From: Cyanidioschyzon merolae
Lineage: Eukaryota
NCBI GenBank assembly: GCA_000091205.1
Contig: AP006485.2
Length of the DNA: 64,000 nucleotides
Reading direction: 5' to 3' (one strand)
Shown here: piece after piece, positions 3,450-62,223 of the stretch
How the letters are laid out: each line of letters opens with the position of its first letter
How positions within the stretch are numbered: the stretch's first letter is position 1
Position numbers and translations under genes: made by a program
The notes under the pieces: model-generated
What the model was told of the DNA's origin: nothing
Seen by the model: only the letters and a program-made list of their open reading frames with translations
Databases searched by the model: none

Positions 3450-4154
3450 GAACCCCGGTTAGACTTTTCGAGTGTATACCATAGAAAAATGGATCACTGT
3501 TGTGAGGTCATTGTAGTTGACGCGTGAACGCGTTCGTGCAACGCTCGGTGCGACTCCACCAGTATCTGCGTCCGTCTATGTGTGTTCGTGTGTATCAGGG
3601 CATATGTTTTTCAACAAGTTCTGCGCACTGCTTTACGACGCACATCAACGCCTGCGAAAAGCGTACACCATACCGTCGATACCGGGACAACGCGCTCAAC
3701 CGCTGCGTCCGTCACTGACACTAGACGTTGAGCCGCGCTCTCAGCTCTCCAGGCATTCATCTGCCGTATTCATGTTGCTGAGACTCCAAGAACTGTAGAC
3801 CTAGCATGACAGTAAATGTTCACGTGCAGAGAGATGAGAAACTGCAGAGAAATACGAACCTTTCATATGTAGATATTAGGGATTGTGTAGCCTGCACAGC
3901 ATATCAAGCTTGTACTGCTCATCTCTACACATCCCATACAAAGCAAAACGAGACCCGGCTCCAGTCTTATATGCCAAATACCTCCTTTCCCGCACCTGCA
4001 ATACCTTGTCAGTTCCATGCGAGTCTCCCATTCAAGAACGTCAAGACGAGAGCCTTGTTGCTACGAAGGTGCCGCGAACACTGCGGCGTCGACCGCATCC
4101 AGAACAATCAGGTTTTCCGTTTAGTTGTTGCCCGAGCGACTGGATGTTTTGGAC
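3450..4154. repeat. 705-bp dispersed repeat, copy 1 (about 98-99% identical to 34454..35157), abutting the 5' end of the EngA-like gene.
   Basis: Direct comparison of the two blocks shows only a handful of substitutions. Six-frame ORFs 3517..3798 / 34521..34802 and 3806.. / 34810.. are near-identical in translation. Confidence 0.9.
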
Positions 4155-4200
4155 GCACAAGTTCGTTTCTGATAGGTACACGCGTCTTCCATCTTTGCCG

Positions 4201-11526: not shown

Positions 11527-12700
11527 ACAAGTAGATGTGTTCCGTGCCAAAAACAGGTATATTCAAAGAGTGGTTGCGGTCAACAGTAGAGAATGACCGG
11601 TTGATCACCCTAGGGAAAGCAAAACCGTCAAATGTAGTCGCCACGGACGTCCCTGTTCCTCAACAGCATGTTCGTGTGGTCGTGAAGACACCGGGATACA
11701 GTCGCGAAAAAGTCCTAGATTATGCATGGCCATCTTGCACCGAAATCGCAACGACAGCCTTCCTGGAGCGTCGCTATAGGTATGAAGCACAGTGACTTTG
11801 ATTTGTTTTTTTTTCTGTGGGTGAGACTTCCTTTCGAAGATATGGTCGGAGCGTATGCCGGCATTCGCGGAACAGGGCGCCCATTGTATGTAAATTCGAT
11901 TTAGATGAGAACGAGGATATCACGATCAGTTCGAGTTGCAGTGGATTCACTCTGCGGCCTCAGATTCGCTCGAGGAGAAAGCTCGTACAACGACACGAAC
12001 AGCTTTGTCGAATTCTTGAAGACTTTTCCGGACGTTCGATGACGTCCTTCTATGTTACAACCTGGCGTTTGACCATTCTTCTTGCGTTCACGCTTTTGCC
12101 GATTCAAACGGGAATAGAGCAGCTTTTCATTCCACTGTACGCTCCGTAATCCAGGCCCAGTGAAAGAGCGTTCTCCATCTTGATACGGTATGATCGCTTC
12201 ATTGGGCGAATCGCTGGAGTGTTCAGCACGCGGTGACACACCAGGCCATATGCCGTTGTTCTTCCGCGAGTCCATCCACCGCAGAGAGCGTCCTCACCTG
12301 GGTGCAGAGACAGGTGCATTCATTTTCAAAAAATATAAGGGATGAACTGAGATGTACACGTCCGGAGGCCGATATAGAGGGAAGGCAGCGGACCGCTTCG
12401 GCGATCGAAAATCACGGAGAGCCAACAGAGCACCAAATGGTACAGAAGGCGCGAGTTCCTGGAATCCTTGCATTGGCGAATCCAACCAGCGGCAAGAAAT
12501 GCAAAGAGCTTTCCATCCGAGACATGAACGCTACTTTCAATATTAGGAGATCTGCGACGCTGAAGACGATACCCGAGGTGCTTACGCAATGTAATTTTGC
12601 AGGGCAGCATCTCAGGCTCGAAGTGTACAAGGAGACGCTGAAGCTGATAGCAGGCGGCCGGATATAAATACACTGGGAGGCGTCTGCGGGCGGAGATTAA
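11527..12700 (+). mobile_element. Internally deleted, decayed copy of a TnpB/Fanzor-like transposon: N-terminal fragment plus RuvC-III end plus conserved 3' tail.
   Basis: ORF 11535..11795 is homologous to ORF 48240..48608 and to the end of the 45089..44415 ORF (FLERRYRYEAQ / FLERRDRYEAQ / FLDRELERKAE). ORF 12233..12667 carries a degenerate RuvC-III (ELSIRDMNATFNIRR; compare NRDFNAAINIRR at 43030). The 3' non-coding block 12553..12700 is conserved with the other two copies. Confidence 0.6.
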
Positions 12701-15104
12701 TTTACCAAATAATCGAAAAATTTTTTGTTTTCTTTACATGCACGTCCATGGGCATTTATCTAGTATACAGGACGCAAATCGAATAATCGTTTGGAGAGGC
12801 TAGCGCGCTCGCACACGAGCAGGGAATCCGCTTTAGCAGTGGCGTGCTCTGTTCAGCACAATACGTCGCTGAAAAAGGTGCAAGGCAGGCAGGCATCGTA
12901 TTCCAACTATCCTCCTGGAAACGCGTCCGCCAGTGCGAGGCTCAGAGCAACGACATGAGCCTGGGCGATCCGGAGCGACGCTCGCACGCGTTGCTAACCC
13001 GCTTCCGAACTCGCCACCAAGCGGTTTCTTTTCTGCTGCTAGGAGCTCATGAATTGGCTGCATTGACTCGCGAAGAATCCCATCCGTCACTCGTATTTTT
13101 TTTCTGAGCCAGAACAGTGAGGCTTTTTTTTTGGCGTATAACGTCCCTGAGGGTACCTCTCGTGAAGCGCTCGAGATTAACGTGTGTATGGTTTCTGATT
13201 TTGGTTTGAAGTTTCCTTAACGTATGCGCTGTAGAGCCCAGGTCGCCGAGATGCCACTGCGACTCGTCACAGGATTCTAACACATGCGTGTGCAAATGAC
13301 AGGTGCAACGATACGGAAGTATTGCATCTTCTGTACCGTGTATCCGTTGTGTGGTTGCATATGGGTTTCGTCGACAAATTCCGGAGCAATGTGGACAGCT
13401 GGCTGCCCTGTCGCCAGCATTCCTGCTTAAACTTGCTTGACGAGGTGCGTCATAGAGAGAGAGAGAGGCGAAACCAGGATCCCTCTAATAAGAAGCTACG
13501 TGATCCACCACGGTATTCTGTACGTTTCGGTACCGCGGATGCGAGCGACTCTGCTATTGAACCGTGATCGCAGTGAAAACGTTTCACAACAGAAATGACG
13601 ACTTCGACTGGATTGCACCGGACAGAACAGAACGGCACGAAGAGAAGCTCCGCGCTAGTCACAGCTGCGTTCTCCTCGACGGTTTTTGAGTGGTGGAAAA
13701 CGGCGGTGTCTAAACACAGGACATGTTTGTTTGGAAATGAGGAGCCACGAAGAGTGTTTCGACGGAGGTTAGGGTGCTTAACGCACTCGTCGCTTTGGCG
13801 GCGTTCAGGCGACCACGCAACGGACTCGTCGTCTGGGCAGGTACTGTTGCGATATTTGTTTGTCTCGTCTTTCCGAACAGCATTTTTGCCCTCTATGAGT
13901 TCCTATACGCAGGTCTGTTATTTGTCCCGAAACAAGTCTCACCGTTTGAGACTACGACCCGTTCAAACTGTAACAGTGTTCGCATTTCAATACAATATAG
14001 AGAGTAAGTGGGTCTGCGCGCGATAGTCTCACATTGAAGCATACCGGTTTCTTTGTCCATCGGTGTCCGGTTATCACCTTTCGTATCAGCGGGGCGGACA
14101 ATTCAGATCCTATGGTTCCTTTGGTAGGATTTCTCAGAGGTCGCTTGTAGTGAAATGAATAGACAAGAGGAAACAGTCCCGTAGAAAGAGTTCAATGAAC
14201 TCTGTTTCGGATGCACGATGAGAAGGATATGGACGACGAGAAATATGGTCGATCCGCGTGATGAAAGCAGACTTACGGACATCTACAAGTAGGGACGTTT
14301 TTTACACGCTCATAGTGACAGTGTAACATGTTTCCACCACCTTTCTCCAATCTGCAGGATACATTCCTGCTGTCGAACAACTAAGAGAAAAACAATCATA
14401 AACAAAAGGGCATGCAAATATATGTGCTCCAAAAATCGCTGCTCCTATAATAGGGCGTCTCGTGTGGACGCCAGCAAGTGCCTTCTCTCGATCGCTGTTC
14501 TTGAGCAACAGCGTATCGATGTAGCGAACTAGATTCTCCCAGATGCACAGCCTCTGGTGATGACCAGGAAGTAGACCTCGGGCATTAGCCCAGGATGCAG
14601 GACCCGACCAACCCCAGTGCAGCGTACCCGGATCAAGTCGGCGCTCGATCAATGCTCCAGTGCCCGGTACACCAGCTCGTGATCGCGCTTGAAACTTTGG
14701 AACGCAGATTCCATCCTGGGATCCGCGGAATGATTTTACCCGATCTGGTGTCCATGGGTGATACTAGCTACATCCAGGTACGTGCACGAACAATCGCCGC
14801 GACTCCAGATGCAGATATCGAAAGGCAAATCCTTCGTTATAGCAGACGCACCCTTGCAAGCACATGTACGAGTATATCTATATGCGCAGGCGCGCTCATT
14901 CGTCCGAGCATAAACATGCACGCCTGAATATACGCACGTACGTCCATGTATACATCCATAGACTTTCAAAGGAGGCAGAGGGCATGAACAGTGGTCTTTT
15001 TGTGAAATAACATCTCTGCATACCTGCAAGGCAGGCGGTAGTGATCCCCCACCCCGCCCCCGCCCCCCAACCCCGAGAAACATTAACATGCCCTGCCGCA
15101 GCGC

Positions 15105-31822: not shown

Positions 31823-34445
31823 TGGAATGCAGAAGGCAGCACAACCTTTTTGGTTTTTCTCGAAGATATTTAAAATACAGAATTGGAACATTTTGATTCG
31901 AGAACGATCATGGTAGGGTTTTATGTGTTCATGGCTCGCTTGAGACATAAAAGCCTCATACAAGTCAGCCATTCGACGGTTAGCGGGTGGATAAACCACC
32001 CTTCTCGTCGTCGTCGTTACCCATTACGTCGTGCATCCAGACCAGAACCCATCGACTGCGATCTGCACGACTGTCTACTCGTCGATCCGTCCCACTACAT
32101 ACCTCCTGTGAGCAAAGATATCAGAGGAGACACAGCGTGTGAAGTTTCGCGCATTTGGCACAAACAATGGCGAGCAGACACGAGTGCACGAAGGAGAAAG
32201 CACGCTCCTGGAGGATATCGTCAGGCGTTGAAGGACACACGATCGATTTCGAACTGAAACGCGAAAGCCTTGAAGTGGAGCGGCGGATGCTCGTCTCAGT
32301 CGACGAGACGTTATTCAGGACAAATGGTCAAACGATGTGTGCGTACTCAATGTGGAGCAAACTGTTGTGTATGAATAAACGGAAACCGAGCGTGACGTCA
32401 ACGCGAGCTCTCGGGGCAGTTCAGTGGAGCGCTTTCCCACATAAATCACAGAATCGATACGCTCGTTCAACACAGCATCCTTCGTTGAACCACGCTTCGT
32501 GGCTTCTCCGTCCCGCATTCCTCTGTCCAGCTGCTGCACGGCAACTTCGCTTTCCGCCACTCACAAGCGGTCAACAAGTGCGCTGCTGAGACTGGCGACG
32601 AGCTGCCCTTCGTGACAACCTCTGTTCCCTCGTTCAGTGCAGTCGAATGCCTCCGCTCTGTTCGCAGAGGCAACGTCTGCGCTCTCGGATCCATAGACGG
32701 GTCATTCGCGTGCACGTTGCGGTTCGTTCATAAACCGTTATTTCGACAGCCGTGCTCGCTCTCCTCAATCGCTAATCTGCTCTGTTGGTTCTGTGTTCGA
32801 GAACCGGGGCGAACGGAAGGCCGCGCTTCGGTCCATGAGCGCGCACACCGTGGAAAAGAGGAGCAAGCGCCAAGTAGGCAGCAGTGGATACATATATCTT
32901 TAGGAAAGGTACGCTCCGGTCCCGTCGTGCACCCCGTGCGCCCGAGTCCTGATGAAAACTAACCGATATGGCGCATCGTGATGATACACATGCCAACCTG
33001 CCAAATGGAGGACTCGCACTGGAAACCACCAGGCAGGCAAAGAAGCAAGAATGCTCCGGAATACGGGGACGAGCAGCGCCTGGAAGGAAAAATATCGGTG
33101 CAGCTATTGCTCAGTCTGGAACGGTCATCATAGCCTCGCTACCGAAACACACATCAACCGGGAGAATCACCCAAAAAGGAAGATACAGGGCGCCCTAAGG
33201 GGATGCGTAGCTTCTGACTCGAGCAGGGCTCGCTCCGCTTCCTTCGCTTTGACGTACCCTGTCAGGGTACGGCGCGTCGGCATCACCGGTGCAGCGCTGT
33301 CAGCTGTTCCAAAGCGTCTTGAAGGTTTCGATCAAATCGTCGTGCGACAACGTAACGGACACTCAGGGCAGACGATGCGAACCGTCCTGATTGTAGGATC
33401 AGTGATGTGTATACACGTTTCACAGAGGACCTCGAAGTTTCGGTGCGCCTGTCGTCGCTTCGAAGACCTACAGCGTCGGTGCCAATACGTACCAACGTGA
33501 ATCCCCGAAAGCCGAAATCATAGGCAGGCTCGTGTCGGGCGCTTCATGAGGCGCTGTATGTGCGTATTCGCGCCTCAGCTCACGGGCCCAGACTCGTGGC
33601 GACTAGTTCAAATGAATCTGCGTAACAGATACGCTACGAGTTTCCAGGCGGCGCATGTGAACCGTCTTTGGCAAGAGTACATGGGAGCGCGCCGGGGTTC
33701 ACAACGGTGTCTATCGTAAAGAGGCAGGAAACTTGCATTCGGCAACGTGTTGAATGCGTTGCAAGAAAAGGAATGGACTTGAACGTCGCGTTGTTTGATC
33801 GTAGCGTATTGGGCTGAGCGTGCTGTAGGACGCGAAAAGCGCACCCCTGTTCACTCGACAAGAGCGTACACCGAGTGCAGGAATCTGTGCTGCACGGTAT
33901 CTATCGAATCGTTCAGAACGACATACGAACACCGAGAGTGGGCGTGCACTGTGAAACTGGTAGAGAGGAAAACGCTGAAACACGGCCGAATGCACTTCAT
34001 GGTGTCCAGTACGCTGAGCGAACTTCACATACCGAAGCACTCGATGATCAGAGTCGTTGCTGTAGCGTACATCCAGCAGCCGTCGTAGGGAGACGCTCAA
34101 GCACATGCTGCACCGAGACTCTAATGCATCGATGAACCTACGGAAATGTCTTGCGCTTCCAGAATGTCTACCGGGTTGATGTCGAGCGAACGTTCAAGTA
34201 ACTGTTTCGAACTCGGACGAGGGAACGTCTCGAAACAATGAAGCCTTTGGGTGTGAAAAAATGTGGCAAGGGTAGCTGGCATTGGATTCTCGCCTGAAGC
34301 AAGGCACTGGTATGGTACATTTCGCAATGCAAAGTGACTGAAGCGCCCTATGTCTATATAGGTACCGGTACCAGTGTTCCTGTGTCATTGGTGAGCAGTA
34401 AAGATGATCCAGTATTCGATACTTTGAGCATACTCCATTTCGATG
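31823..34445. repeat. 2,623-bp direct repeat, copy A (about 98-99% identical to 59601..62223; constant offset 27,778 bp).
   Basis: All six-frame ORFs in 31.8-34.4 kb recur at +27,778 with 0-2 aa differences (for example 31883 / 59661, 32612 / 60390, 33051 / 60829, 33875 / 61653). Boundaries read from sequence (tggaatgcag ... catttcgatg). Confidence 0.92.
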
Positions 34446-34453
34446 TTTCCGGG

Positions 34454-35157
34454 GAACCCCGGTTAGACTTTTCGAGTGTATACCATAGAAAAATGGATCA
34501 CTGTTGTGAGGTCATTGTAGTTGACTCGTGAACGCGTTCGTGCAACGCTCGGTGCGACTCCACCAGTATCTGCGTCCGTCTATGTGTGTTCGTGTGTATC
34601 AGGGCATATGTTTTTCAACAAGTTCTGCGCATTGCTTTGCGACGCACATCAACGCCTGCGAAAAGCGTACACCATACCGTCGATACCGGGACTACGCGCT
34701 CAACCGCTGCGTCCGTCACTGCCACTAGACGTTGAGCCGCGCTCTCAGCTCTCCAGGCATTCATCTGCCGTATTCATGTTGCTGAGACTCCAAGAACTGT
34801 AGACCTAGCATGACAGTAAATGTTCACGTGCAGAGAGATGAGAAACTGCAGAGAAATACGAACCTTTCATATGTAGATATTAGGGATTGTGTAGCCTGCA
34901 CAGCATATCAAGCTTGTACTGCTCATCTCTACACATCCCATACAAAGCAAAACGAGACCCGGCTCCAGTCTTATATGCCAAATACCTCCTTTCCCGCACC
35001 TGCAATACCTTGTCAGTTCCATGCGAGTCTCCCATTCAAGAACGTCAAGACGAGAGCCTTGTTGCTACGAAGGTGCCGCGAACACTGCGGCGTCGACCGC
35101 ATCCAGAACACTCAGGTTTTCCGTTTAGTTGTTGCCCGAGCGACTGGATGTTTTGGA
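34454..35157. repeat. 705-bp dispersed repeat, copy 2. It lies 8 bp after the end of 2.6-kb repeat A and abuts the 5' end of the USP25/28-like gene.
   Basis: See copy 1. Identity resumes at gaaccccggttagac and ends at ...gactggatgttttggac in both copies. Confidence 0.9.
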
Positions 35158-35169
35158 CTTTTCCCGCAG

Positions 35170-38100
35170 ATGCGAAACATCTTCGCCAAGACTCGATCCG
35201 AGAATAGCTCTCAGCGCAACTCTAGCGCGAATGTGAGAGATCGACCAACAGCCGTTCGGGAAACGGGTAGTTCGCAGACAAAACGCATGGAGGTGTGGAA
35301 GCTTGCCGCCGAGCTGGGTTTCACTGATGCCCAGGTGGCGGTTGCCCTGAAACACGGTTGCCACTCGACAGAACAAATTTTAGACTACATTCTGACGCAC
35401 AAGATTCGCCCGGATGGCTCGAGCGCCGGCCCTGCGGCTGGAGCTCAGAGAACGTCACCGGAGCCTAACTCGGGCTTGCCTCCACCTGCCGACCGACACC
35501 GCGACCAGAAAGAAGGCACGAACGACCCGAACAACACAGAGCAGGCAGAGTTGCAAAGAGCAATCGAACTCTCACGCCGCGAGTACCTTCGGCCTAGAGA
35601 TGCATTGGCGTCCAGTACGGAGAACGCAGTTTCCAAACCCGTTGGTTCCCAAGCGCCGACCGCGGAGAGTCCGCTCGCTCTCGCCTCGGATACTGAACTA
35701 CAGCGCGCTATCGAAGCGTCCCTTGAAGAAGAACGAAAAGCCCGACAGCGCTTTGAACTCTCTCTCTTTAGGCCGTCGGAGGCATCGCTTGATCCGAATA
35801 CTGTCGTCCGAGTGTCACCGATGGAGCCAATTGGTCTCTGTAATGTCGGCAACACCTGCTACCTCAATTCCTTACTCCAAGTATACTACCATACCCCTTC
35901 TTTTGTTAGGCGTGTATTTTCGTGGCGCGAGGATCGAGTCGACACAGAAAAGACACCTCCGAAAGCCATTGATGTCGTTCGCGAGCTCCAACGCCTCTTC
36001 GCGTACCTGCTTCTCTCCGAGCGCCGTTACGCGGACCCTACCGGTTTCCTGTACGCGCTTGCGGAGACCTTGAATTCAGCTGCCCTGGATCTGGGAGCTC
36101 AACACGACCTCAGTGAGTTCAATGAGACGTTCCTGCGCTCCATAGAGGCTGCTCTGCAGACGGTAGACAACACGGAGCCATTGCAGCGCACATTTACGCA
36201 CTCCTTTGTTCAGGAATTGCATTGTCGAGTCATGGAGGGAGCGCATCAAGTCGCAATGGCGGTTGAAATGAATCCACAATGCTCATCCGATGGATCGGGC
36301 ACCCACGGGGCGCCCCAGTCCCCAGGAGCAAGCGATACACCAGCGCTCGACGCGATGCTGGAGCGGCTCAGCGGACTGCAGTCCGCAACGTGGCGGCTTG
36401 CCGACCGAGTTGAGGGAACCACCAGTGCGCTCATTCTCGATGTTGCTTCGGGTAACTGCCGGGACTTGTACGCTGCATTGGATGAGTATGTGCTCGCCGA
36501 TGTGGAGTATCAGCCAGAAAAGCTGACGCCGGGGACTCCTATACACGCAGATTCTAATCCGAGCGATACGCAGGCGTCGACGAGCGGGATAACAACAGCA
36601 CCAACGACGAATACCCGCACCGCAACCAAGTCTGTATGGTTTCAAACTCTGGCTCCAGTGCTTTTTATCTATCTTCAGCGATTGCGCTTCAACCAAGAGA
36701 CTCACATGCCGGAGAAGGTGAACGATTTCTTCGATTTCGCAGAGACAATCTATCTAGATCGGTACCTTGAGCGTAACCGTGAAGCAGCGCTCTTAGCACG
36801 ACTACAAGATGCGCAGTATTGCCGTGAATACGCTCAGTTAGAGCAGGAGCTCCAACGACTGCTTCACTTACCAGGGTTGCAAGAGCCATCGGATGTCGTC
36901 TACGAGGCGGTGCTTGAGCGACTACGCGCCCTGGATCCCGGAAATTCCTCACATCCGCCTGTCGTTGTCGACCAGAGCGAGACTGCACATCGGGAACAGG
37001 CCCTTGAGAGCTTGTCCTACGTCTACGTGACAGAGAAACAACAACGCGAACGGCTTGAGACACGAATGGCGTGTCTCGCGGAGGAAATGGTGCAAAACTT
37101 TGCCAGCCTGTCGAATGAAGCGTATCGGTTGCAGGCAGTGCTTGTACACGAGGGCGCCCCCGAGGCAGGTCATTATTTTGTTTTCATTCGATCGACTCGA
37201 GCGGGCGACTGGTACGAATTCAATGACCAACGAGTACGTCGCGTCTCGTGGGAGCATGTCCACTCGGTGGGGCGCGGTGGGCCCGGCACAGCCTCTGCCT
37301 ACGCGTTGCTCTACAGACGGGAAGAACACGGGGAGGCGAGCCAGCTTCCCTCCATCGAAGAGGCCAAGCGTCTGCTACCGGCGTCGCTCGTAGCGGAAAT
37401 CGCTGCGAACAACGCAGTGCTTCGGGAGGAGGTAGAACGCGAGAAATTGCGTCCAGTAGTTGAGAGCATCTCCGAACGCCTTCGACAACCGGAAAAGGAC
37501 GAGACATTCCTGGAGCGCCCTGAATGGCTTTGTCTTCATCAAGGTCAGGTCGCAGACGCTGTCCTCTTGGCAACATGTCATGTGTACAGCGACCAGACCC
37601 AGGGCGTAGATCTGTTCACGGCGCTGCGAAAACACCGTGCACTACGGACACATACAAACGACGAAACAGCAGGGAACACCGAGGCCAACGAGCCAGTGTT
37701 GCCGCCAACCAAGGCGTCAGCGTCCACGTTTCTCGGAGCGATGAAGTCCGCAGCGTCCGGGCCATTCTCCGACGACATTCGCGAACTTGCTACCCGTCTC
37801 GAGTGCGCAGACAACGAAACTCTGAACCAGCTGGAAAACGCATACACGCGAGCCCAACAAACGTATCGAGTGACGATTCTAGCGCTGATGCTCACCGGTA
37901 TCGCCGCAGAATGCATACGAGAAAGTTCCTGGCGCGATGCAGCGTCTGCGATCACCAGTATATACGATAAGGCGTCGGCGGGCATCTCGTATGCAGGGCT
38001 GACTGCCTCTCTTAGGAATTGTGTAGAGCAGCTTGTTTCCCAAACGAAAACCTCTGACCCGGAGCTGTCCAACTGGTTTGCGCACGAATACCTGCCAGAG

Positions 38101-38343
38101 AAGGCGCTTGAAAAGGAGCCAGCAGACAACTCGACACCAACGTCGACACCTGCACCCGCTTCCGGAGCTGCGCCTGGTAGCGAGATAGAGCGTTGCTCGC
38201 GACGCACGGCACCGCAGCGTCCAAGGTTACCTCCCTGTGATGAACGTATGGTCAGTGCCAGAATATCTGCGTTTGGAAGCCAAGAAGCGGCAGTTCGTTG
38301 GTACGATGGTCTCGTGCGGGGTTTGGGTTCGCCTCAGCGTTGA
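35170..38343 (+). CDS. Ubiquitin carboxyl-terminal hydrolase with N-terminal UBA-like domain and tandem UIMs (USP25/USP28-like architecture). Alternative start M at 35287; the track ORF from 34810 runs through the repeat.
   Basis: Cys box GLCNVGNTCYLNSLLQVYYHTPSF. His box YRLQAVLVHEGAPEAGHYFVFIRS...WYEFNDQRV. UBA-like VWKLAAELGFTDAQVAVALKHGCHSTEQILDYIL. Two UIM-like motifs (EQAELQRAIELSRRE; TELQRAIEASLEEE). Large insertion in the catalytic domain, as in USP25/28. Confidence 0.85.
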   Translation: MRNIFAKTRSENSSQRNSSANVRDRPTAVRETGSSQTKRMEVWKLAAELGFTDAQVAVALKHGCHSTEQILDYILTHKIRPDGSSAGPAAGAQRTSPEPNSGLPPPADRHRDQKEGTNDPNNTEQAELQRAIELSRREYLRPRDALASSTENAVSKPVGSQAPTAESPLALASDTELQRAIEASLEEERKARQRFELSLFRPSEASLDPNTVVRVSPMEPIGLCNVGNTCYLNSLLQVYYHTPSFVRRVFSWREDRVDTEKTPPKAIDVVRELQRLFAYLLLSERRYADPTGFLYALAETLNSAALDLGAQHDLSEFNETFLRSIEAALQTVDNTEPLQRTFTHSFVQELHCRVMEGAHQVAMAVEMNPQCSSDGSGTHGAPQSPGASDTPALDAMLERLSGLQSATWRLADRVEGTTSALILDVASGNCRDLYAALDEYVLADVEYQPEKLTPGTPIHADSNPSDTQASTSGITTAPTTNTRTATKSVWFQTLAPVLFIYLQRLRFNQETHMPEKVNDFFDFAETIYLDRYLERNREAALLARLQDAQYCREYAQLEQELQRLLHLPGLQEPSDVVYEAVLERLRALDPGNSSHPPVVVDQSETAHREQALESLSYVYVTEKQQRERLETRMACLAEEMVQNFASLSNEAYRLQAVLVHEGAPEAGHYFVFIRSTRAGDWYEFNDQRVRRVSWEHVHSVGRGGPGTASAYALLYRREEHGEASQLPSIEEAKRLLPASLVAEIAANNAVLREEVEREKLRPVVESISERLRQPEKDETFLERPEWLCLHQGQVADAVLLATCHVYSDQTQGVDLFTALRKHRALRTHTNDETAGNTEANEPVLPPTKASASTFLGAMKSAASGPFSDDIRELATRLECADNETLNQLENAYTRAQQTYRVTILALMLTGIAAECIRESSWRDAASAITSIYDKASAGISYAGLTASLRNCVEQLVSQTKTSDPELSNWFAHEYLPEKALEKEPADNSTPTSTPAPASGAAPGSEIERCSRRTAPQRPRLPPCDERMVSARISAFGSQEAAVRWYDGLVRGLGSPQR

Positions 38344-41963: not shown

Positions 41964-42701
41964 TTAAATCAGTTTCTTTGCCCTGAAGAAAGCGTTGAGG
42001 TAGCGTGCCTGCCAGATACCTGCTCCGATCATAACCAAGCAAGAGATGATGCTGTACCAGAGCACGCGCCGCGACACCGACTCGTTGATTGAGCGCATAG
42101 CCTCTTCACGAGCCCGCATATGCTCCAGTTCTTCCAGAATGGACTTCACTTCATCTTCCATGCGCCGCAGGGCGATTTCCAGGTTATCAAGGTGCTCTAC
42201 CTTGGCTACTGTTGAGTAGTCCTTCGCCGCGGCTCCCGTACTGACGTGGAGCGTAATTTTGCGTTTCGTCTCGGGCCCGTCACCGTTTTTTCCCGAAAGG
42301 CAAAACTGGTAGTTGTAGGTAGGCCATACGTCTCCGTAGTTTTCGTCGAACTCTTGGTGCTCTTTGTCCGCCTCTCCAACGTTACCGTGCGGGTGCTGAC
42401 CGCGCTGCGGTCCCGCTGGACTCTCGAACGTGAACTTTCCCTGATCGATGTTGTCTTTTTGAAAGATTACCTTACCGTCAGGTCCAGTGACCACCAGCTC
42501 GACATCAAGTTTACCTGGGCCGGCAGTGACGAGGTACTCGCCTAGAACGCGGGTCCCCGCGGTCACGTCCTCGCTGAAACACTTCTTTTGGCCACTTTTC
42601 AGGAAAAACTGAAGCGCGCCCGTCACCGGAACCCGAGCTAATACGCCCAGCACGAGCAAACACCAAACCAGAGTACACAGTCTACGCGAAACCGACGACA
42701 T
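41964..42701 (-). CDS. p24/emp24 (TMED) cargo receptor: GOLD domain, coiled coil, one TM, short tail. Start called at the signal peptide M (42701); the track ORF extends to 42929.
   Basis: Signal peptide MSSVSRRLCTLVWCLLVLGVLA. GOLD-domain pattern (FFLKSGQKKCFSEDV...YLVTAGP...VELVVTGPDGKVIF). Coiled coil LEIALRRMEDEVKSILEELEHMRAREE. TM plus C-terminal FFRAKKLI. Confidence 0.82.
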   Translation of the reverse strand: MSSVSRRLCTLVWCLLVLGVLARVPVTGALQFFLKSGQKKCFSEDVTAGTRVLGEYLVTAGPGKLDVELVVTGPDGKVIFQKDNIDQGKFTFESPAGPQRGQHPHGNVGEADKEHQEFDENYGDVWPTYNYQFCLSGKNGDGPETKRKITLHVSTGAAAKDYSTVAKVEHLDNLEIALRRMEDEVKSILEELEHMRAREEAMRSINESVSRRVLWYSIISCLVMIGAGIWQARYLNAFFRAKKLI

Positions 42702-42884
42702 TCTTGCCACGAGCGCTCGGATCCAGGCCTTGAGTAACGTCTGAGATGCGAGCACTGCCCGTTGTGTGATTGTTTGCGTGCGAGGGTGCGTTTGTGTCGG
42801 TATACCACCGGTAGAGCGGGCGCACAGTCGAACGATGCCACCGGTGTACAGAAGCGGCGAGAAACCCGCTTTCGAGGAAACGTC

Positions 42885-45089
42885 TCCAAGTGATGTGCAG
42901 ACGCCCCCTCGTCTTTCTCGGCGGGCCATCTTCTACTGATTCCAAGTTTTTCTCATATAGTTCGACTTGGGAAGGTTGTCCAACAACGTTCCCTCCTGTG
43001 GACTCTGGAGGTCTTTTCTCCATTACCAATCATCTCCGTATATTGATTGCGGCGTTAAAGTCTCGGTTAAAAACCTCCATCCGTTTCTTGCGATTGGAAG
43101 TTGTACTCACTAATGCAAATAGCCCCTGCACTTTTGCCCTCCTTTCCATTTGCTCCTCCGTCAGCGGTCCGTACTTTGCTATATCCTCATGGCTCCTCTG
43201 GCACTTTTCCATCTCCACCCTCTGAAGTGTACACCCCAGCTCGTGGTGTGTATAGGACGTTCGGAACTCATCTATCGGTATTATAACAAAACGCCGTGCA
43301 CACTCCTTGCACGTTCTTGTCGTTGGAGCTGGTGTACACCCTTTTTGGGTCTTCCATCGCCCTGCTCCGTATGCCACTACCAGCCTCTGATTTTCATCCT
43401 CCTTCAGGGCACTCAACTGATTGAAAAAATTCGCGAGCGCCCGCTGCTTTCCACAATACAAATTCATTCGCAAACGAGCCCACCGGGGCTTTGCATACTC
43501 CTCGCACAGCGTATCTCAATGAGGAACGCGAACTTCCATGAATTTTCGAAAAGCTGCAAAGTCCGCTCCTCGGCTCGTCACCTCGCTCAAAGCTTCCAGG
43601 TGATCCTTCATTCCTACATTCCATGCAGCAATTTCCTTCCTTGCATTCATTGTTCCCGGTTCTCGATAGTATATTGCTCTCGAGAACCTCAAAAAAGACG
43701 CATGTCTTTCTGACGTAAGTTACCATCAGCACTATCTTCCGTACGCTTCGGTGCTGCGATGGTTATGATATTCGTATTCCCAGGGTCCGCGCCGACGACA
43801 AAGTCGTTATCCTGCACTTTCTGCGTGGCAAAATCCTCCTCCTTCTCATCTTCATGCATCGCCACGCCAACGACAAAGTCGTTAGCTTGCACCTCCTGCG
43901 TCGCAGCACCCGCCTCCTTCTCATCTTCATCGTTCGTCACGCCAAAGACAAGGTCGTTATCATGCACCTCCTGCGTCGCAGCATCCTCCTCTTTGTTTTC
44001 TTCATGCTTCGCCGCGTGAACGACAAGATCGTTATCCTCTACCTCCTGCATCGCTGGATCCGACTCCTTCTCATCTTCATGCTTCGTAACGGGCGAAGCC
44101 GAGGGCGGAACTGGACGATTTTTCTTCAAGCGCCGATATTGTACACACGTGGCTACTCCATCGGTTTCGATCATCCCAGTGAATACCTTTTGTTTGCTCA
44201 CTTCAGATGTTTGAAATCGAAGATATTCTTCCAGTACGTCTCACGATTTTCGCCGGAGAACTCCTCCTTGTTAGCATTGAACACCGGACTGATCTCCCTC
44301 ATGATGCCGTAAAGGATTCTGGAGTCCATACTCACAAAATGTGACTTGATGTTGCACATTGGAACCACGTTGAAGCGCTTCCCCACTAGGGCAGCCTTCC
44401 ATCTCTCCCACGCTTCATTTTTCCCCACTCAGCTTCACCTCTGCCTTGCGTTCGAGTTCACGGTCCAAAAACACGAAATACCGCAGGACGAGGCGATAGT
44501 ATCTTTCCTTATCTTCTCTCAACTCTGATATCTTGTCTGTTGGATTCGCTAACTCCAAGACTGCGCGGTGCTCTTGTATAGCCGCACGGATTACAGAAGC
44601 TTCATTTGTGCCCCTGCGTGACGCCTTCTCTCCGACGAATTCGATCTCATCTTCATGCTTGCGATCGTTCGTGATGCCGTTGATAATCGCCCATTTTCCG
44701 TTACGAGAGATGCCCGGGTACAGTGCAAACACGGCGCGTATCATGAAATGTTCGAGGTTCATTCTGAAATGGTTCTTCAGATTCGTCAGGTACTTCATCG
44801 CCCCATATGTGTAGATATCCGCGTCACCACTGTATCGGGTACCCTCGAGGAGGAATTCCGCGAAGTTTTCGTGGAGGACTTTCACCCGCTTATTTTCCCT
44901 CCGCGCTTCCTCTATGCCAAGCATCAAGTGACGAAAAAATGTGTTGTCGAAAAACTCGTCCGGAAGCTCGACCGTTTCCATGTTCGTCACGTAGCGATAC
45001 ATCTCCCTCACCAAATGCGTCGGTCCTGAAGAAGCCTTTATCATACTCATGGAGTACGACTCGAGACGGTTTTTGATGGCGTCCCGCAA
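42885..45089 (-). mobile_element. Near-full-length TnpB/Fanzor-like (OMEGA-type RNA-guided nuclease) transposon copy. The coding region is broken into 5 consecutive overlapping reading frames (pseudogene, or possibly short introns).
   Basis: Minus-strand ORFs 45089..44415, 44428..44198, 44201..43689, 43732..43394 and 43473..43030 are contiguous and overlap by a few to 80 bp. ORF-c ends with a RuvC-I-like VVGADPGNTNIITIAAP. The last ORF has the TnpB hallmark ...FVIIPIDEFRTSYTHHELGC...(degenerate Zn finger)...NRDFNAAINIRR* (RuvC-III DxNAAxNI). The 3' non-coding tail 42885..43027 is conserved with the two truncated copies. Confidence 0.65.
43791..44090. repeat. 75-bp tandem repeat x4 (encodes 25-aa acidic units) inside the Fanzor-like ORF, just N-terminal to the RuvC-I motif.
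   Basis: Units start at 43791, 43866, 43941 and 44016 (gcc(g/a)a(c/a)gacaa(a/g)gtcgtta...cttcatg...). Translated on minus strand as ..HEDEKEEDFATQKVQDNDFVVG.. x4. Confidence 0.9.
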
Positions 45090-45642
45090 CTTTTCCTTCT
45101 ACGGATCCTTGATATATTTAAGAACACAGGCTTTCACCACTATCTCGTTGTACAGTTGCCTTTCTTGCCGCCTTCGACGTAGAACCTCGCCCCCTTTTGA
45201 TTCCTCATCACTTCCTGTTCCTTTTCGCTCCGCCATGTTTATCCTTCTTTTCCGACGGCCGGCGATATCGGCCCTCCGGGATCCTCCACTTCCATTTCCA
45301 TGACTTTCCTTTTTTTATTTTTTTTGAAAACGAACGCTCTTTGAACGCTTCTGTTATATACTTCGAAAAAACACTTGAATATACTCAATTGAGGGTCGGA
45401 ATAGGATGGAACAAAAAACCTATACTTTGCTACGACCTCAACGCGAATACAACTTTTACAGTAGAATAGCACGCCAGTGATCAGGATCACTGTTCCCCTC
45501 AGGAGCGACCAGAGCGTCGTGTCTCGTGCCCGCCGGATCTGCCAGGTGCGCGTGCACGCGCAGCGGCTGACATGCGCCCCGCCGCCGATCAGGAGATTGC
45601 TTCTGGATATGTCTATCTCAAAGCGTGATAACCTGTTGCTGA

Positions 45643-47529: not shown

Positions 47530-48229
47530 ACCAAGGGCAGCATCGGCGATCGACACAGCGCTCTGCACGTTGAGCGCGACTCGTGTGCTTGCCAATGACC
47601 GGGCTTGGAGTCGCAGGGGAACCTGCTCGTCAGCTATCAGGTGCCGTGGACCTGGTCGGGATCGGTAGCATCTGCAGTCGTGCGGTCCAAGCGTCAGACA
47701 GCACCGTGCTGACAACAAACGCCTACTTGGCGCGCTTGTACGACAGGACGCTGTGCAGAAGCATGTTTGGTGTCGTTTTCGACGATCTGAGGATCGATGC
47801 AAGGTGCGTCTTCGAGGAAGGCATGCTCGGACGGCAAAACTTGGGTACCAAGGGCACTTCGATGCCTGTTCGCATCGATCGCTGGTATGCTGCGTATCTG
47901 GTAGAGGCGAATACCGTACATAGAGGTATGCGCTGGTGCGTCCGTTCACCGTCTCGATCCGCTGCTGGTACGCGGCTGCGTTAGAATTTCGAGTACCCGA
48001 CGCTGTTACGACGTAAAGGCGCTTCGGTTGATAGTCTTTCAACTCAATTTTGTTTCATCGCGGCTACGGTATATAGGAGGAGGACGAAATCACTAGGTAA
48101 TGTTCTGTATAGATTGTGGAGGAATTGCATACGGCATATGTATTCTTCACTGAACAATGCAATGATGATTGCATTGCACCTCGATGTCAATCATACCACT
48201 ATACGCAGATGCTGAACGAGCACTGAAAG

Positions 48230-49395
48230 AAACAAGTATATGCGCTCCGGGCCGAAACCTGATATTCTCAAAGCCTGCCTGCAATCAGTGATAGAAAACG
48301 ACCAGTTGATCAATTTACGGGAAGCAAATGCGTCCATAGTAGCCACCACGGGCGTCTCTGTTTCGCAACAGCTTATTCGCGTGATCCTGAAAACACCGGG
48401 ATCCAATCGCAATAAAGTGCTAGTTCATTCACAGCCAGCTTCTACCGAAATCGCAGGCACGGTGTTCCTGGAACGTCGCGATCGGTATGAAGCACAGGAA
48501 CATCAGTTTGTTTTCTCACTCGATGAGACTTGCTTCAAACGAGACAATCGCAGCGTAGATGAATACTTGCTGAGCGGGAGCCCGTTGCTCGTACGCTCGA
48601 AATCGTAGAGAACGTCGACATCATCATCTGTTCTAGCTGCGGTGGATTCATTTGGCTGCCTCAGTTCCGCTGAAGAGAACACTCATGCAGCAGCGCCCTC
48701 TTTTTGTAGAGTCATTGAAGACTTGTCCCAGACGTCTGGTGAAGTCCTTCTATTGGACATAGTGGTATTTAGCCGTTCTGCTTCAGTTCGAGCATTTTTA
48801 GATTCTTTCGAGGGGTAGAGCTGGTTTCATTCCTTCTTCTCAACCATGGTTCATCCCCATAGAAGAAGAGTTTTGCGTCCTGAATCGTCACGATCGCTCC
48901 ACCGGGCGAATTGATGAAGCGTTCAGCACATGGTGACCAACCGGGGCACATTTGGTCTTTATTCCGCATGTGCTGCTCGATGCGGGAAGGTCGTCATCTC
49001 AGGCTATAAACAAATGCGTTCATTTTCGAAAAATCTAAGGGATGAGCTGGAATATACACCCTAGGATGTTGAGTTGGAGCGAGGCCAGTGGAGCGTTTCG
49101 TCGACAGATCAGCACGAAGAGCTAACAGAGCACCCAATGGCACAGCGTACACGGCTTCGTGGTCTCCTTGTATCGATTAGTTCAACCAGTGGCAACAAAC
49201 ACATGGAGTTCACGAACCGAGACTTTAACGCTGCGATCAGTACAAGACGGTGTGCGATGCTAAAGACGATACCCGATTGGCAGACGCGATCTAACTTTGT
49301 GGAGCAGCCTCTTAGGCATAAAATAAACAACGAGAAAATGAAACCGATCGCAGACAGCCGGTCTAAACAGACTGGAAGGCGTCTTCGAGTGGATT
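48230..49395 (+). mobile_element. Second internally deleted, decayed copy of the TnpB/Fanzor-like transposon.
   Basis: ORF 48240..48608 is homologous to ORF 11535..11795 (about 55% aa). ORF 49074..49442 has MEFTNRDFNAAISTRR (RuvC-III). The 3' tail 49252..49395 is conserved with the 12553..12700 and 42885..43027 tails. Confidence 0.6.
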
Positions 49396-49795
49396 TTCAT
49401 CTACGCTCCATGGTTTTGAGGCATTCCTTTTTGTCTCACTGACGATGAGCCTAATCGAGAAGGAAATCAAGGCCAGTATCTGATATCGAAACTTGTTGCT
49501 GCCCAACAGATAGATTTAGGGTTCGTTCTTCTGTATCAGAAAACCTAGAGTGCGGCATCCGCGTATTCTGTATCCAGATATACTCACCCGCGAATAGCTG
49601 CCGCACTGCCGTGGCATTCGGGCGATATCTGTCTTTCAGACAACATTCTCGCTTCCACGCAAAGCCCCTGACGCACAGGCCGCGGGCAGCACAACCAGTA
49701 CCTGCAGAGAACATCGTGCAACGCTCCCCAGCGTTTGAAATCTGTCGAGGTTGCCGTGCTCTCGCTCCGATGAAAGCTCCAAACGCATGCAAAGC

Positions 49796-59600: not shown

Positions 59601-62223
59601 TGGAATGCAGAGGGCAGCACAACCTTTTTGGTTTTTCTCGAAGATATTTAAAATACAGAATTGGAACATTTTGATTCGAGAACGATCATGGTAGGGTTTT
59701 ATGTGTTCATGGCTCGCTTGAGACATAAAAGCCTCATACAAGTCAGCCATTCGACGGTTAGCGGGTGGATAAACCACCCTTCTCGTCGTCGTCGTTACCC
59801 ATTACGTCGTGCATCCAGACCAGAACCCATCGACTGCGATCTGCACGACTGTCTACTCGTCGATCCGTCCCACTACATACCTCCTCTGAGCAAAGATATC
59901 AGAGGAGACACAGCGTGTGAAGTTTCGCGCATTCGGCACAAACAATGACGAGCACACACGAGTGCACGAAGGAGAAAGCACGCTCCTGGAGGATATCGTC
60001 AAGCGTTGAAGGACACACGATCGATTTCGAACTGAAACGCGAAAGCCTTGAGGTGGAGCGGCGGATGCTCGTCTCAGTCGACGAGACGTTATTCAGGACA
60101 AATGGTCAAACGATGTGTGCGTACTCAATGTGGAGCAAACTGTTGTGTATGAATAAACGGAAACCGAGCGTGACGTCAACGCGAGCTCTCGGGGCAGTTC
60201 AGTGGAGCGCTTTCCCACATAAATCACAGAATCGATACGCTCGTTCAACACAGCATCCTTCGTTGAACCACGCTTCGTGGCTTCTCCGTCCCGCATTCCT
60301 CTGTCCAGCTGCTGCACGGCAACTTCGCTTTCCGCCACTCACAAGCGGTCAACAAGTGCGCTGCTGAGACTGGCGACGAGCTGCCCTTCGTGACAACCAC
60401 TGTTCCCTCGTTCAGTGCAGTCGAATGCCTCCGCTCTGTTCGCAGAGGCAACGTCTGCGCTCTCGGATCCATAGACGGGTCATTCGCGTGCACGATGCGG
60501 TTCGTTCATAAACCGTTATTTCGACAGCCGTGCTCGCTCTCCTCAACCGCTAATCTGCTCTGTTGGTTCTGTGTTCGAGAACCGGGGCGAACGGAAGGCC
60601 GCACTTCGGTCCATGAGCGCGCACACCGTGGAAAAGAGGAGCAAGCGCCAAGTAGGCAGCAGTGGATACATATATCTTTAGGAAAGGCACGCTCCGGTCC
60701 CGTCGTGCACCCCGTGCGCCCGAGTCCTGATGAAAACTAACCGATATGGCGCATCGTGATGATACACATGCCAACCTGCCAAATGGAGGACTCGCACTGG
60801 AAACCACCAGGCAGGCAAAGAAGCAAGAATGCTCCCGAATACGGGGACGAGCAGCGCCTGGAAGGAAAAATATCGGTGCAGCTATTGCTCAGTCTGGAAC
60901 GGTCATCATAGCCTCGCTACCGAAACACACATCAACCGGGAGAATCACCCAAAAAGGAAGATACAGGGCGCCCTAAGGGGATGCGTAGCTTCTGACTCGA
61001 GCAGGGCTCGCTCAGCTTCCTTCGCTTTGACGTACCCTGTCAGGGTACGGCGCGTCGGCATCACCGGTGCAGCGCTGTCAGCTGTTCCAAAGCGTCTTGA
61101 AGGTTTCGATCAAACCGTCGTGCGACAACGTAACGGACACTCAGGGCAGACGATGCGAACCGTCCTGATTGTAGGATCAGTGATGTGTATACACATTTCA
61201 CAGAGGACCTCGAAGTTTCGGTGCGCCTGTCGTCGCTTCGAAGACCTACAGCGTCGGTGCCAATACGTATCAACGTGAATCCCCGAAAGCCGAAATCATA
61301 GGCAGGCTCGTGTCGGGCGCTTCATGAGGCGCTGTATGTGCGTATTCGCGCCTCAGCTCACGGGCCCAGACTCGTGGCGACTAGTTCAAATGAATCTGCG
61401 TAACAGATACGCTACGAGTTTCCAGGCGGCGCATGTGAACCGTCTTTGGCAAGAGTACATGGGAGCGCGCCGGGGTTCACAACGGTGTCTATCGTAAAGA
61501 GGCAGGAAACTTGCATTCGGCAACGTGTTGAATGCGTTGCAAGACAAGGAATGGACTTGAACGTCGCGTTGTTTGATCGTAGCGTATTGGGCTGAGCGTG
61601 CTGTAGGACGCGAAAAGCGCACCCCTGTTCACTCGACAAGAGCGTACACCGAGTGCAGGAATCTATGCTGCACGGTATCTATCGAATCGTTCAGAACGAC
61701 ATACGAACACCGAGAGTGGGCGTGCACTGTGAAACTGGTAGAGAGGAAAACGCTGAAACACGGCTGAATGCACTTCATGGTGTCCAGTACGCTGAGCGAA
61801 CTTCACATACCGAGGCACTCGATGATCAGAGTCGTTGCTGTAGCGTACATCCAGCAGCCGTCGTAGGGAGACGCTCAAGCACATGCTGCACCGAGACTCT
61901 AATGCATCGATGAACCTACGGAAATGTCTTGCGCTTCCAGAATGTCTACCGGGTTGATGTCGAGCGAACGTTCAAGTAACTGTTTCGAACTCGGACGAGG
62001 GAACGTCTCGAAACAATGAAGCCTTTGGGTGAGAAAAAATGTGGCAAGGGTAGCTGGCATTGGATTCTCGCCTGAAGCAAGGCACTTGTATGGTACATTT
62101 CGCAAGGCAAAGTGACTGAAGCGCCCTATGTCTATATAGGTACCGGGACCAGTGTTCCTGTGTCATTGGTGAGCAGTAAAGATGATCCAGTATTCGATAC
62201 TTTGAGCATACTACATTTCGATG
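59601..62223. repeat. 2,623-bp direct repeat, copy B (partner of 31823..34445).
   Basis: See copy A. Downstream of copy B the 705-bp module is absent (sequence diverges right after catttcgatg). Confidence 0.92.

Follow-up and report, generated by a model that had tools for sequence, protein, structure and literature searches.

Bao and Jurka (2013) defined the Fanzor1 and Fanzor2 groups and listed one Fanzor1 family each in the alga Cyanidioschyzon merolae and in the white spot syndrome virus (WSSV) (PMC3627910). The algal family, CMe-1A, has been described as ~150 copies, ~80% identical to a consensus of ~3 kb, that have no terminal inverted repeats (TIRs) and whose target site duplications (TSDs) were left undetermined. 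The 5′ 635 bp of the CMe-1A consensus equal a separate repeat, TE-N2_CMe, and Fanzor1 has been captured by several transposon superfamilies (PMC3627910). Before that, Nozaki et al. (2007) had reported 253 copies of an interspersed repeat in C. merolae, averaging 3.2 kb, all with truncated open reading frames (ORFs), transcribed, and amounting to ~5% of the genome; this repeat was first weakly recognised through WSSV WSV486, with BLASTX values of 1e-5 to 4e-2 (PMC1955436). Here, we describe a Fanzor1 locus in a stretch of 64,000 nucleotides of contig AP006485.2 (hereafter, the window), which CMC locus tags and exact protein matches place on chromosome 3 of C. merolae 10D. The locus is very probably a dead member of the interspersed Fanzor1 family that C. 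merolae carries (CMe-1A), and it lies in the gap between the Tmp21/p24 precursor gene and CMC074C.

The locus is an ordinary copy of a repeat already described, which was first noticed in 2007 and placed in Fanzor1 in 2013. Judging by their descriptions, we equate the 253-copy repeat of Nozaki et al. with CMe-1A, and WSV486 is probably the WSSV Fanzor1 listed (as SWv) by Bao and Jurka. WSV486 is viral rather than algal, and its likeness to the C. merolae repeat is that of the published weak BLASTX matches. The window copy is like CMe-1A in species, in a size of ~3 kb, in a divergence that leaves ~80% identity (to the consensus in the one case, to the intact copy in the other), in the lack of TIRs, in the truncated ORF, in the Fanzor1/TnpB-like protein, and in belonging to a dispersed multicopy repeat. 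By description, no difference between the two has been established, and the window copy is most likely one member. What may be new lies at the family level only: the loss of the zinc ribbon, hairpin-bearing ends with a candidate omegaRNA, a minisatellite linker, and a single intact metagenome locus.

All features of the element lie on the minus strand. One long protein-like translation is shared in turn by three minus-strand frames, from ~45240 to ~42980. The likely start is the ATG at 45234-45236 (MAERKGTGSDEESKGGEVLRRRRQERQ...), which begins a basic N-terminal patch and aligns with the N-termini of two metagenomic relatives, P0001 and P0039; at the other end, the homology of the translation runs past NIRR to ~42980. 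A profile hidden Markov model (HMM) built from 44 family members (P0001, P0041, and 42 distant representatives) has been run on the six-frame translation of the window. Five colinear pieces match this profile with E values from 1e-48 to 3e-14, far beyond chance, and the five minus-strand ORFs that a first-pass annotation had read as parts of one TnpB/Fanzor-like gene are indeed all present. The same annotation had called the element near-complete, which holds, and had confined it to 42885-45089, which does not, since the gene runs from the ATG at 45236 to ~42980 and the element covers ~45562-42826.

Piece 1 (44439-45098; profile positions 47-260, E 1e-48) is the N-terminal helical part and probably a REC-like region, and piece 2 (44201-44395; positions 256-318, E 4e-17) probably spans the REC/WED junction. 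Piece 3 (43728-44231; positions 309-393, E 3e-14) contains beta-strands that are probably WED, an acidic linker, and the RuvC-I strand GADPGNTNIITIAAP. These domain names are our own reading and not the assignment of a tool. Piece 4 (43525-43695; positions 394-450, E 5e-15) runs from RFSRAIYYREPG to SRGADFAAFRKFMEV, and piece 5 (43033-43515; positions 454-591, E 2e-48) is the C-terminal RuvC half.

Pairwise alignment with an intact metagenomic copy, L001, shows that the window element is colinear with it, with 81.8% identity across 2718 nt. Within the ORF, the two differ in length by -2, -1, and +2 nt only, and an intron-like insert is absent. These differences are a 2-nt deletion at 44420-44422 (~44421), a 1-nt deletion at 44204-44206 (~44205), and a 2-nt insertion in a T-run at 43695-43697 (~43696), each of which shifts the frame. 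In addition, the alignment of the relatives places three in-frame stops on conserved codons: a TAG at 45099-45101 for a Tyr (KDP(stop)KEKL), which is common to the metagenomic locus L019, a TGA at 43516-43518 for a Trp (AHWDALW in relatives), and a TGA at 43030-43032 for a Cys (NIRKCAVLE in relatives). Past this last TGA, the homology to the relatives' translations extends for ~20-60 further codons. The window copy is a dead pseudogene with six disabling lesions, three frameshifts and three nonsense codons. Frameshifts or short introns had been suggested at first sight; the frameshifts stand, the introns do not, and the break placed between pieces 4 and 5 is not a frame break, as both are in the same frame and separated by a stop.

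The repaired translation matches 41 proteins, all from metagenomes (JGI, ENA, or MetaClust) and none from NCBI. The top match is P0001, a protein of 752 residues, with 72% identity at 96% coverage. A profile search of 1.84 billion representatives gives 2371 relatives with E values no higher than 1e-3, and among those listed at the top most are 560-750 residues long; a precomputed label, PF26935/DUF8286, has been met in the homology search of the repaired protein and its intact relatives. The 44-member profile matches the solved Fanzor1 proteins PpFz1 (9cf0, E 3e-21), SpuFz1 (8gkh, E 9e-16), and GtFz1 (9cer, E 5e-13), and 10 of the 44 members match PF07282, the Cas12f1-like TNB domain.

The broken window copy cannot fold, and the fold has been read from the intact relative P0001. 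An AlphaFold (AF2) model of P0001 based on the 44-sequence alignment has a predicted local distance difference test score (pLDDT) of 81.6 and a predicted template-modelling score of 0.79, while a shallow alignment of 12 sequences gives a useless model with a pLDDT of 35. In a Foldseek search of this model against the PDB, the top seven matches are all Fanzor1 (SpuFz1, PpFz1, and GtFz1), with E values of 2e-16 to 1e-13 and target-normalised template-modelling (TM) scores of 0.49-0.71 (SpuFz1: E 2e-16, TM 0.70). The next matches are weak, with Cas12 variants at E of at least 1e-2 and the mimivirus Fanzor2 and Cas12f at E 0.02 or worse, and no TnpB structure is among the 50 fold matches listed. 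The match is one of overall fold, the published Fanzor1 architecture being WED-REC-RuvC-NUC. Together with the aligned catalytic residues and the CMe-1A literature, the profile matches and the fold agree with the first-pass view of a Fanzor rather than a prokaryotic OrfB, and the HMM search and structure prediction proposed as checks both point the same way. Membership of the window locus in the Fanzor1 family is demonstrated.

The active site of SpuFz1 has been reported to coordinate two Mg2+ ions through D383, E541, and D606 (PMC10432273), and a "rearranged catalytic site" has been described for Fanzors (PMC10530073). In HMMER alignments, three residues of the algal family correspond to positions 777, 935, and 1000 of the 8gkh chain, a fusion of maltose-binding protein (MBP) with SpuFz1; they equal D383, E541, and D606 of SpuFz1 once the MBP offset of 394 residues is subtracted. 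In the family alignment, D484 and E656 of P0001 are invariant and D725 is nearly so. The corresponding codons of the window copy are the RuvC-I Asp GAC in GADPG (43785-43787), the relocated RuvC-II Glu GAG in IDEFRTS (43267-43269), and the RuvC-III Asp GAC in NRDFNAAINI (43060-43062). All three are intact. The canonical RuvC-II position, placed by motif reading and not by alignment with TnpB, is occupied by an invariant Gly (G623 of P0001; codon 43366-43368, in VVAYGAGRW) and no glutamate. The relocated Glu follows 33 residues after this invariant Gly of AYGAG, and, with the canonical position so read, the arrangement fits the published rearranged Fanzor site. The RuvC-II Glu, which had escaped detection by eye, is thus the E of IDEFRTS, and the RuvC-III motif has RuvC-I and relocated Glu counterparts, which align with D383 and E541 of SpuFz1.

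The closest structurally described systems are SpuFz1 of Spizellomyces punctatus (8GKH, 9CEU-9CEZ), PpFz1 of Parasitella, and GtFz1 of Guillardia. They have in common with the algal family the fold, the RuvC triad including the relocated Glu, and the motifs TDG / DPG / DE(F/Y)xT(S/T) / GLL / NRD. On the other hand, they are only 12-16% identical to it. Their CxxC...CxxC zinc ribbon is lacking from the algal family, an acidic minisatellite linker precedes RuvC-I in the algal family, and the window copy is a pseudogene. SpuFz1 elements carry 30-nt inverted repeats (PMC10432273); the algal elements end in terminal hairpins or palindromes and have no TIR.

The acidic linker is encoded by an in-frame tandem repeat of 75 bp x 4.0 at 43790-44086, detected by TRF with 80% matches and no indels. 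The first-pass annotation had seen in it an unusual acidic insertion of four 25-residue units. The insertion is there, but within this lineage it is not unusual, as a period-75 array occurs in 67 of the 82 related loci with 2-7 copies, and the lengths of the arrays examined are near whole units. P0041, a distant member of the family, does not have the repeat. The acidic block is a polymorphic minisatellite typical of the copies of this lineage and not peculiar to the window copy. The equivalent residues of P0001, 375-470, have a pLDDT below 50 and are probably disordered, and in the model the repeat would form a linker between what are probably the WED strands and the RuvC-I strand.

The limits of the element have been drawn by blastn comparison with the 82 related loci and by the L001 alignment. 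In most full-length copies, the similarity has abrupt limits, at 45551-45553 on one side and at 42826 on the other. At the 5′ limit, another 7-15 nt are in common; with them, the sequence forms a palindrome rich in GC. The window copy has it as a perfect palindrome of 16 nt, TGCGCGTGCACGCGCA, at 45547-45562. Relatives have an equivalent palindrome of other sequence (for example, GCGCTCnnnGAGCGC) at the same place, as judged by eye. The whole core element, therefore, is a decayed copy of ~2.73 kb at 42826-45562, and 278 relatives with common sharp ends have been found on eukaryote-like metagenome contigs.

In many metagenomic copies, the palindrome is directly preceded on its 5′ side by a repeat module, usually 570-700 bp and at most 1200 bp long, that belongs to one of at least three unrelated kinds (loci L002, L015, L018, L021, L024, L026, L052, L056, L064, L069, and L073-L077). 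The window copy, L001, L005, and L013 have no such module. The module may be the counterpart of the 635-bp TE-N2_CMe-like part of the published CMe-1A consensus. Compared with many of its relatives, then, the window copy is without the 5′ module and, at its other end, without the 3′ arm of the terminal hairpin described below.

At the 3′ side, the last ~150 nt are strongly conserved, exceeding what coding would need. The 3′ alignment of the relatives shows three stems at 42856-42925, namely S1 (42925-42908), S2 (42907-42877), and S3 (42870-42856), followed by the conserved motif CTNCTGTACAC (42855-42844). In the three stems, 85% of the cells are paired, against 39-53% when the partners are slid. 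G-U pairs are numerous in the second helix, a feature that speaks for an RNA of the sense strand.

Beyond the stems, most of the 44 distinct copies examined have a terminal hairpin after the conserved CTGTACAC motif. It occurs in at least four unrelated sequence versions, with the arms CGTCGTTCGA / TCGAACGGCG, AACGTTTTTC / GAAAGACGTT, and GGCGAGCACGCGC / GCGCGTGCTCGCC, and a further version in L026. The fold z-score of the hairpin has a median of -2.1 and is below -2 in half of the copies (22 of 44). The window copy retains a remnant of the 5′ arm, GGCATCGTTCGACT, at 42826-42839, as recognised from the 3′ ends of the relatives. It has no terminal hairpin (z = -1.0), and the 3′ arm and the last ~15 nt are missing or unrecognisable. 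Judged from these alignments, the stems and the motif form a candidate omegaRNA scaffold, and the terminal hairpin appears to covary across copies.

Several observations weigh against the assignment to Fanzor1 and CMe-1A or against an omegaRNA at the 3′ end. Searches with single sequences are nearly blind to the Fanzor1 homology. Pfam gives only Cas12f1-like_TNB on the five ORF pieces, over 12 residues at E 0.039, and nothing on the repaired protein or the intact relatives; NCBIfam, including its bacterial TnpB models, has no match on an intact relative. A search of the PDB with a shallow profile of 12 sequences also gave no match, and matches appeared only after the 42 distant representatives were added. 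The catalytic triad has been placed by alignment. Neither TIR nor TSD has been found, and no tnpA-like ORF is among the ORFs listed for the element. The name CMe-1A has been inferred from the species, size, copy number, divergence, truncated ORF, and lack of TIRs.

The absent C4 zinc ribbon belongs with these observations, as it is part of the original TnpB/Fanzor signature. Among the 20 members (of 44) that can be parsed between DEFRT(S/T) and NRD, none has CxxC...CxxC, 19 are without any CxxC, and one has a single CxxC. In place of the ribbon, P0001 has HH...C...C in residues 656-725 (window 43269-43060), which is not conserved, while profile alignments show that SpuFz1, PpFz1, and GtFz1 retain the zinc-ribbon cysteines. 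Of the zinc-finger region first reported here, the TS motif remains and the cysteines do not. Because the founding paper lists the C. merolae element as Fanzor1, we treat the loss as a probable clade-specific degeneration.

As for the 3′ end, Rfam has no match on the element at E up to 1, and the covariation of the three stems is weak, with 12 double changes against 5.6 in shuffles and 6 of 500 shuffles reaching the observed value. On the 336-column 3′ alignment, RNAalifold keeps only one stem of 4 bp. This near-empty consensus is attributed to the variants of the terminal hairpin being out of register, and the named helices have been counted and each copy folded singly in its place.

The breaks in the gene could also be explained by short introns, programmed frameshifts, or stop read-through, so that a full-length Fanzor is still made. 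The ORF pieces follow one another with small overlaps, the three catalytic codons are all intact, and the repeat family has been reported to be transcribed (PMC1955436), all of which would suit a functional gene. However, the copy is colinear with L001 with nothing extra at the breaks, the frame is lost through indels of 1-2 nt, and the stops occupy codons that are conserved as Tyr, Trp, and Cys. Introns are very few in C. merolae, and all copies of the repeat have truncated ORFs (PMC1955436). The host neighbours read correctly with the standard code, and an ORF spanning RuvC-I to RuvC-III is present in only 2-3 of the 82 loci, which are one locus recovered repeatedly. A functional gene is therefore already largely refuted, and we give it very little credence. 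Equally improbable is an otherwise intact gene broken by sequencing or assembly errors. Two of the three indels do lie in or beside short homopolymers (GGGGAAAAA at ~44421 and TTTTTT at ~43696), but the genome has been finished from telomere to telomere (PMC1955436), and three of the lesions are stop-creating base substitutions rather than indels. Furthermore, the TAG at 45101 recurs in L019, which was assembled independently, and the 18% DNA divergence from the intact copy is consistent with long neutral decay.

A bacterial tnpB (OrfB) of the IS200/IS605 or IS607 type, acquired by recent horizontal transfer or present as contamination, must also be considered. The algal element shares with IS200/IS605 TnpB (for example, that of ISDra2) the RuvC core, a weak similarity in the TNB domain (the Pfam match to Cas12f1-like/OrfB TNB), and ends that are hairpins or palindromes and not TIRs; a 3′ guide RNA may be a further likeness, and "bacterial-like" transposase matches have been noted in the C. 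merolae genome by Nozaki et al. (PMC1955436). Against this, the element has nuclear genes of the host on both sides, in a eukaryotic chromosome whose sequence is finished. Its intact protein has ~750 residues, about twice the length of a TnpB of ~400 (~350-500 in IS200/IS605), and a long N-terminal region of helices. It differs further in the relocated Glu and in having Gly where the canonical RuvC-II residue is read. The top sequence and fold matches are to Fanzor1, with Cas12f-type matches weak and TnpB missing from the 50 fold matches listed, the NCBIfam TnpB models do not match, and a tnpA-like ORF is not seen among the listed ORFs. A bacterial origin of this kind is thus extremely doubtful.

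The nature of the termini is less settled than the identity of the gene. It is possible, though in our view not probable, that the 3′ hairpins and the 5′ palindrome are DNA transposon ends recognised by a trans-acting transposase of the HUH/Y1 or Helitron type, with Fanzor as a passenger. Terminal hairpins of several unrelated variants at the same place, a 5′ palindrome, the lack of TIRs and TSDs, and the alternative 570-700-bp modules that precede the Fanzor core in many copies would all agree with such ends, as would the capture of Fanzor1 by several transposon superfamilies (PMC3627910). The terminal structures are reminiscent, by analogy, of the single-strand ends of IS200/IS605 or Helitron transposons. 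Yet the G-U pairs of helix 2 work only as sense-strand RNA, and a candidate transposase has not been seen. The two readings are also not mutually exclusive, as transposon end and omegaRNA scaffold coincide in known Fanzor and TnpB elements (PMC10432273).

By analogy with the characterised Fanzor1 proteins, an intact element would encode a Fanzor1 of ~750 residues. This protein would belong to the TnpB/Cas12 lineage and cut DNA under RNA guidance through a split RuvC domain, in which the RuvC-II Glu would have moved to the (V/I)DEFRT(S/T) motif and left a Gly at the canonical position. As in SpuFz1, GtFz1, and bacterial TnpB (PMC10432273, PMC10530073), a non-coding omegaRNA would arise by transcription of the 3′ end, which gene and element share. 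That end contains the three conserved stems, the CTGTACAC motif, and the terminal hairpin, and the sequence directly past the 3′ end of the element would serve as the guide. The ribonucleoprotein would then cut DNA matching the guide beside a short target-adjacent motif (TAM), and this cutting could favour the retention or spread of the element. The window copy is incapable of nuclease or omegaRNA function, with six lesions, ~18% divergence from the intact relative, and the 3′ arm of the hairpin lost. Whether the Fanzor1 core element of the Cyanidiales represents a distinct variant of Fanzor1, marked by the lack of TIRs, a 5′ GC palindrome, a long covarying 3′ hairpin, no zinc ribbon, and an acidic minisatellite, is a more speculative proposal, which we consider unlikely.

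The family is overwhelmingly dead, with one intact locus among the 82 examined. This locus has been recovered in three metagenome assemblies as L001 (Ga0504780_000149), L003 (Ga0080006_1147940), and L004 (Ga0078972_1000527); an ORF spans RuvC-I to RuvC-III in L001 and L004, and L003 is 99% identical to P0001. Beside the intact P0001 locus are genes for a 2OG-Fe(II) oxygenase and a GRAM/VASt protein. The metagenomes with P0001 also contain Cyanidioschyzon-like contigs.

The window locus itself is of little weight, being a decayed and unannotated copy of the repeat that is commonest in C. merolae. It is also a very divergent pseudogene of an RNA-guided nuclease, missed by Pfam and NCBIfam, that has been recognised from sequence alone. 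The family profile and the predicted structure tie a clade without zinc ribbon firmly to the solved Fanzor1 structures, and the 3′ terminal structures provide a concrete candidate for an omegaRNA or a transposon end in relatives of an acid hot-spring alga. If the 3′ region were a new type of omegaRNA and the P0001 locus were active, the family would offer a Fanzor1 nuclease from a relative of such an alga and a clue to how Fanzor1 moves without a recognisable transposase; this concerns the family and not the dead window copy. P0001, the only intact copy found (752 residues), is the natural candidate for biochemistry.

The host genes around the element have been identified by exact protein matches, which bear out the host-gene flanks and algal nuclear setting first proposed. 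Six host ORFs of the window are identical to the C. merolae 10D proteins BAM79004, 79005, 79010, 79011, 79012, and 79013, which belong to a record of 481,791 bp, and the genes matched include CMC065C, SRP54, an N-myristoyltransferase (BAM79010), and a Mn transporter (BAM79013). One flank of the element is the Tmp21/p24 precursor gene (BAM79011; 41964-42701) and the other is CMC074C (BAM79012; 45643-47529). The two accessions are consecutive, so the 2.94-kb gap between them has no annotated gene, and none of the element fragments tested against annotated proteins is present in the protein collection. The standard code reproduces the annotated proteins of the neighbouring host genes. A genetic code with reassigned stops has been ruled out, since the host genes fit the standard code and the relatives have sense Trp, Tyr, and Cys codons at the stops.

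A mechanical ORF of 321 residues over the p24 gene (41964-42929, minus strand) begins 76 codons upstream of the annotated start at 42701 and thereby includes part of the Fanzor element's 3′ end. The identical over-extension is seen in several gene calls from metagenomes, of 321 residues and in the cluster of BAM79011, which implies that the element adjoins the p24 gene in related strains too.

Locus L019 (Ga0080006_1142693) has been compared with window positions 48212-42823. Its CMC074C-like flank and the 5′ half of its element are 94% identical to the window and include the same TAG, whereas the 3′ half of its element is only 83% identical and the other flank is unrelated. The switch occurs at the 75-bp repeats. 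CMC074C has a paralogue, CMQ418C, with at least 90% identity, on a record of 1.23 Mb (chromosome 17). Such a mosaic could have arisen if copies recombined or underwent gene conversion; alternatively, L019 may correspond to the paralogous locus at CMQ418C.

Four to six further Fanzor remnants are present in the window, with family-profile E values of 1e-10 to 3e-3 and 30-43% amino acid identity to P0001 by tblastn. These short, heavily decayed remnants are located at 10459-10971 (minus), 12449-12613 (plus), 13125-13352 (minus), 33789-34164 (plus), 49140-49328 (plus), and 61567-61942 (plus). Old Fanzor copies littering the window are in line with the reported ~5% share of the genome.

Other repeats of the window include a direct repeat of 2,623 bp with 99.0% identity (31823-34445 and 59601-62223), each copy of which contains a decayed Fanzor-like remnant. 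Much younger than the main element, it has arisen either through segmental duplication in recent times or as a composite repeat that moved recently. A 705-bp repeat with 99.1% identity occurs at 3450-4154 and 34454-35158, the second copy abutting the 2.6-kb repeat. Its copies overlap the starts of ORFs, the first that of 3883-6150 and the second that of a 1177-residue ORF at 34810-38343. A short repeat of the non-autonomous kind, like TE-N2_CMe, is one possible identity for it. An older pair of 1.38 kb with 68% identity (11333-12705 and 48036-49404) ends in Fanzor C-terminal remnants in both copies and may represent a second, older Fanzor-bearing family.

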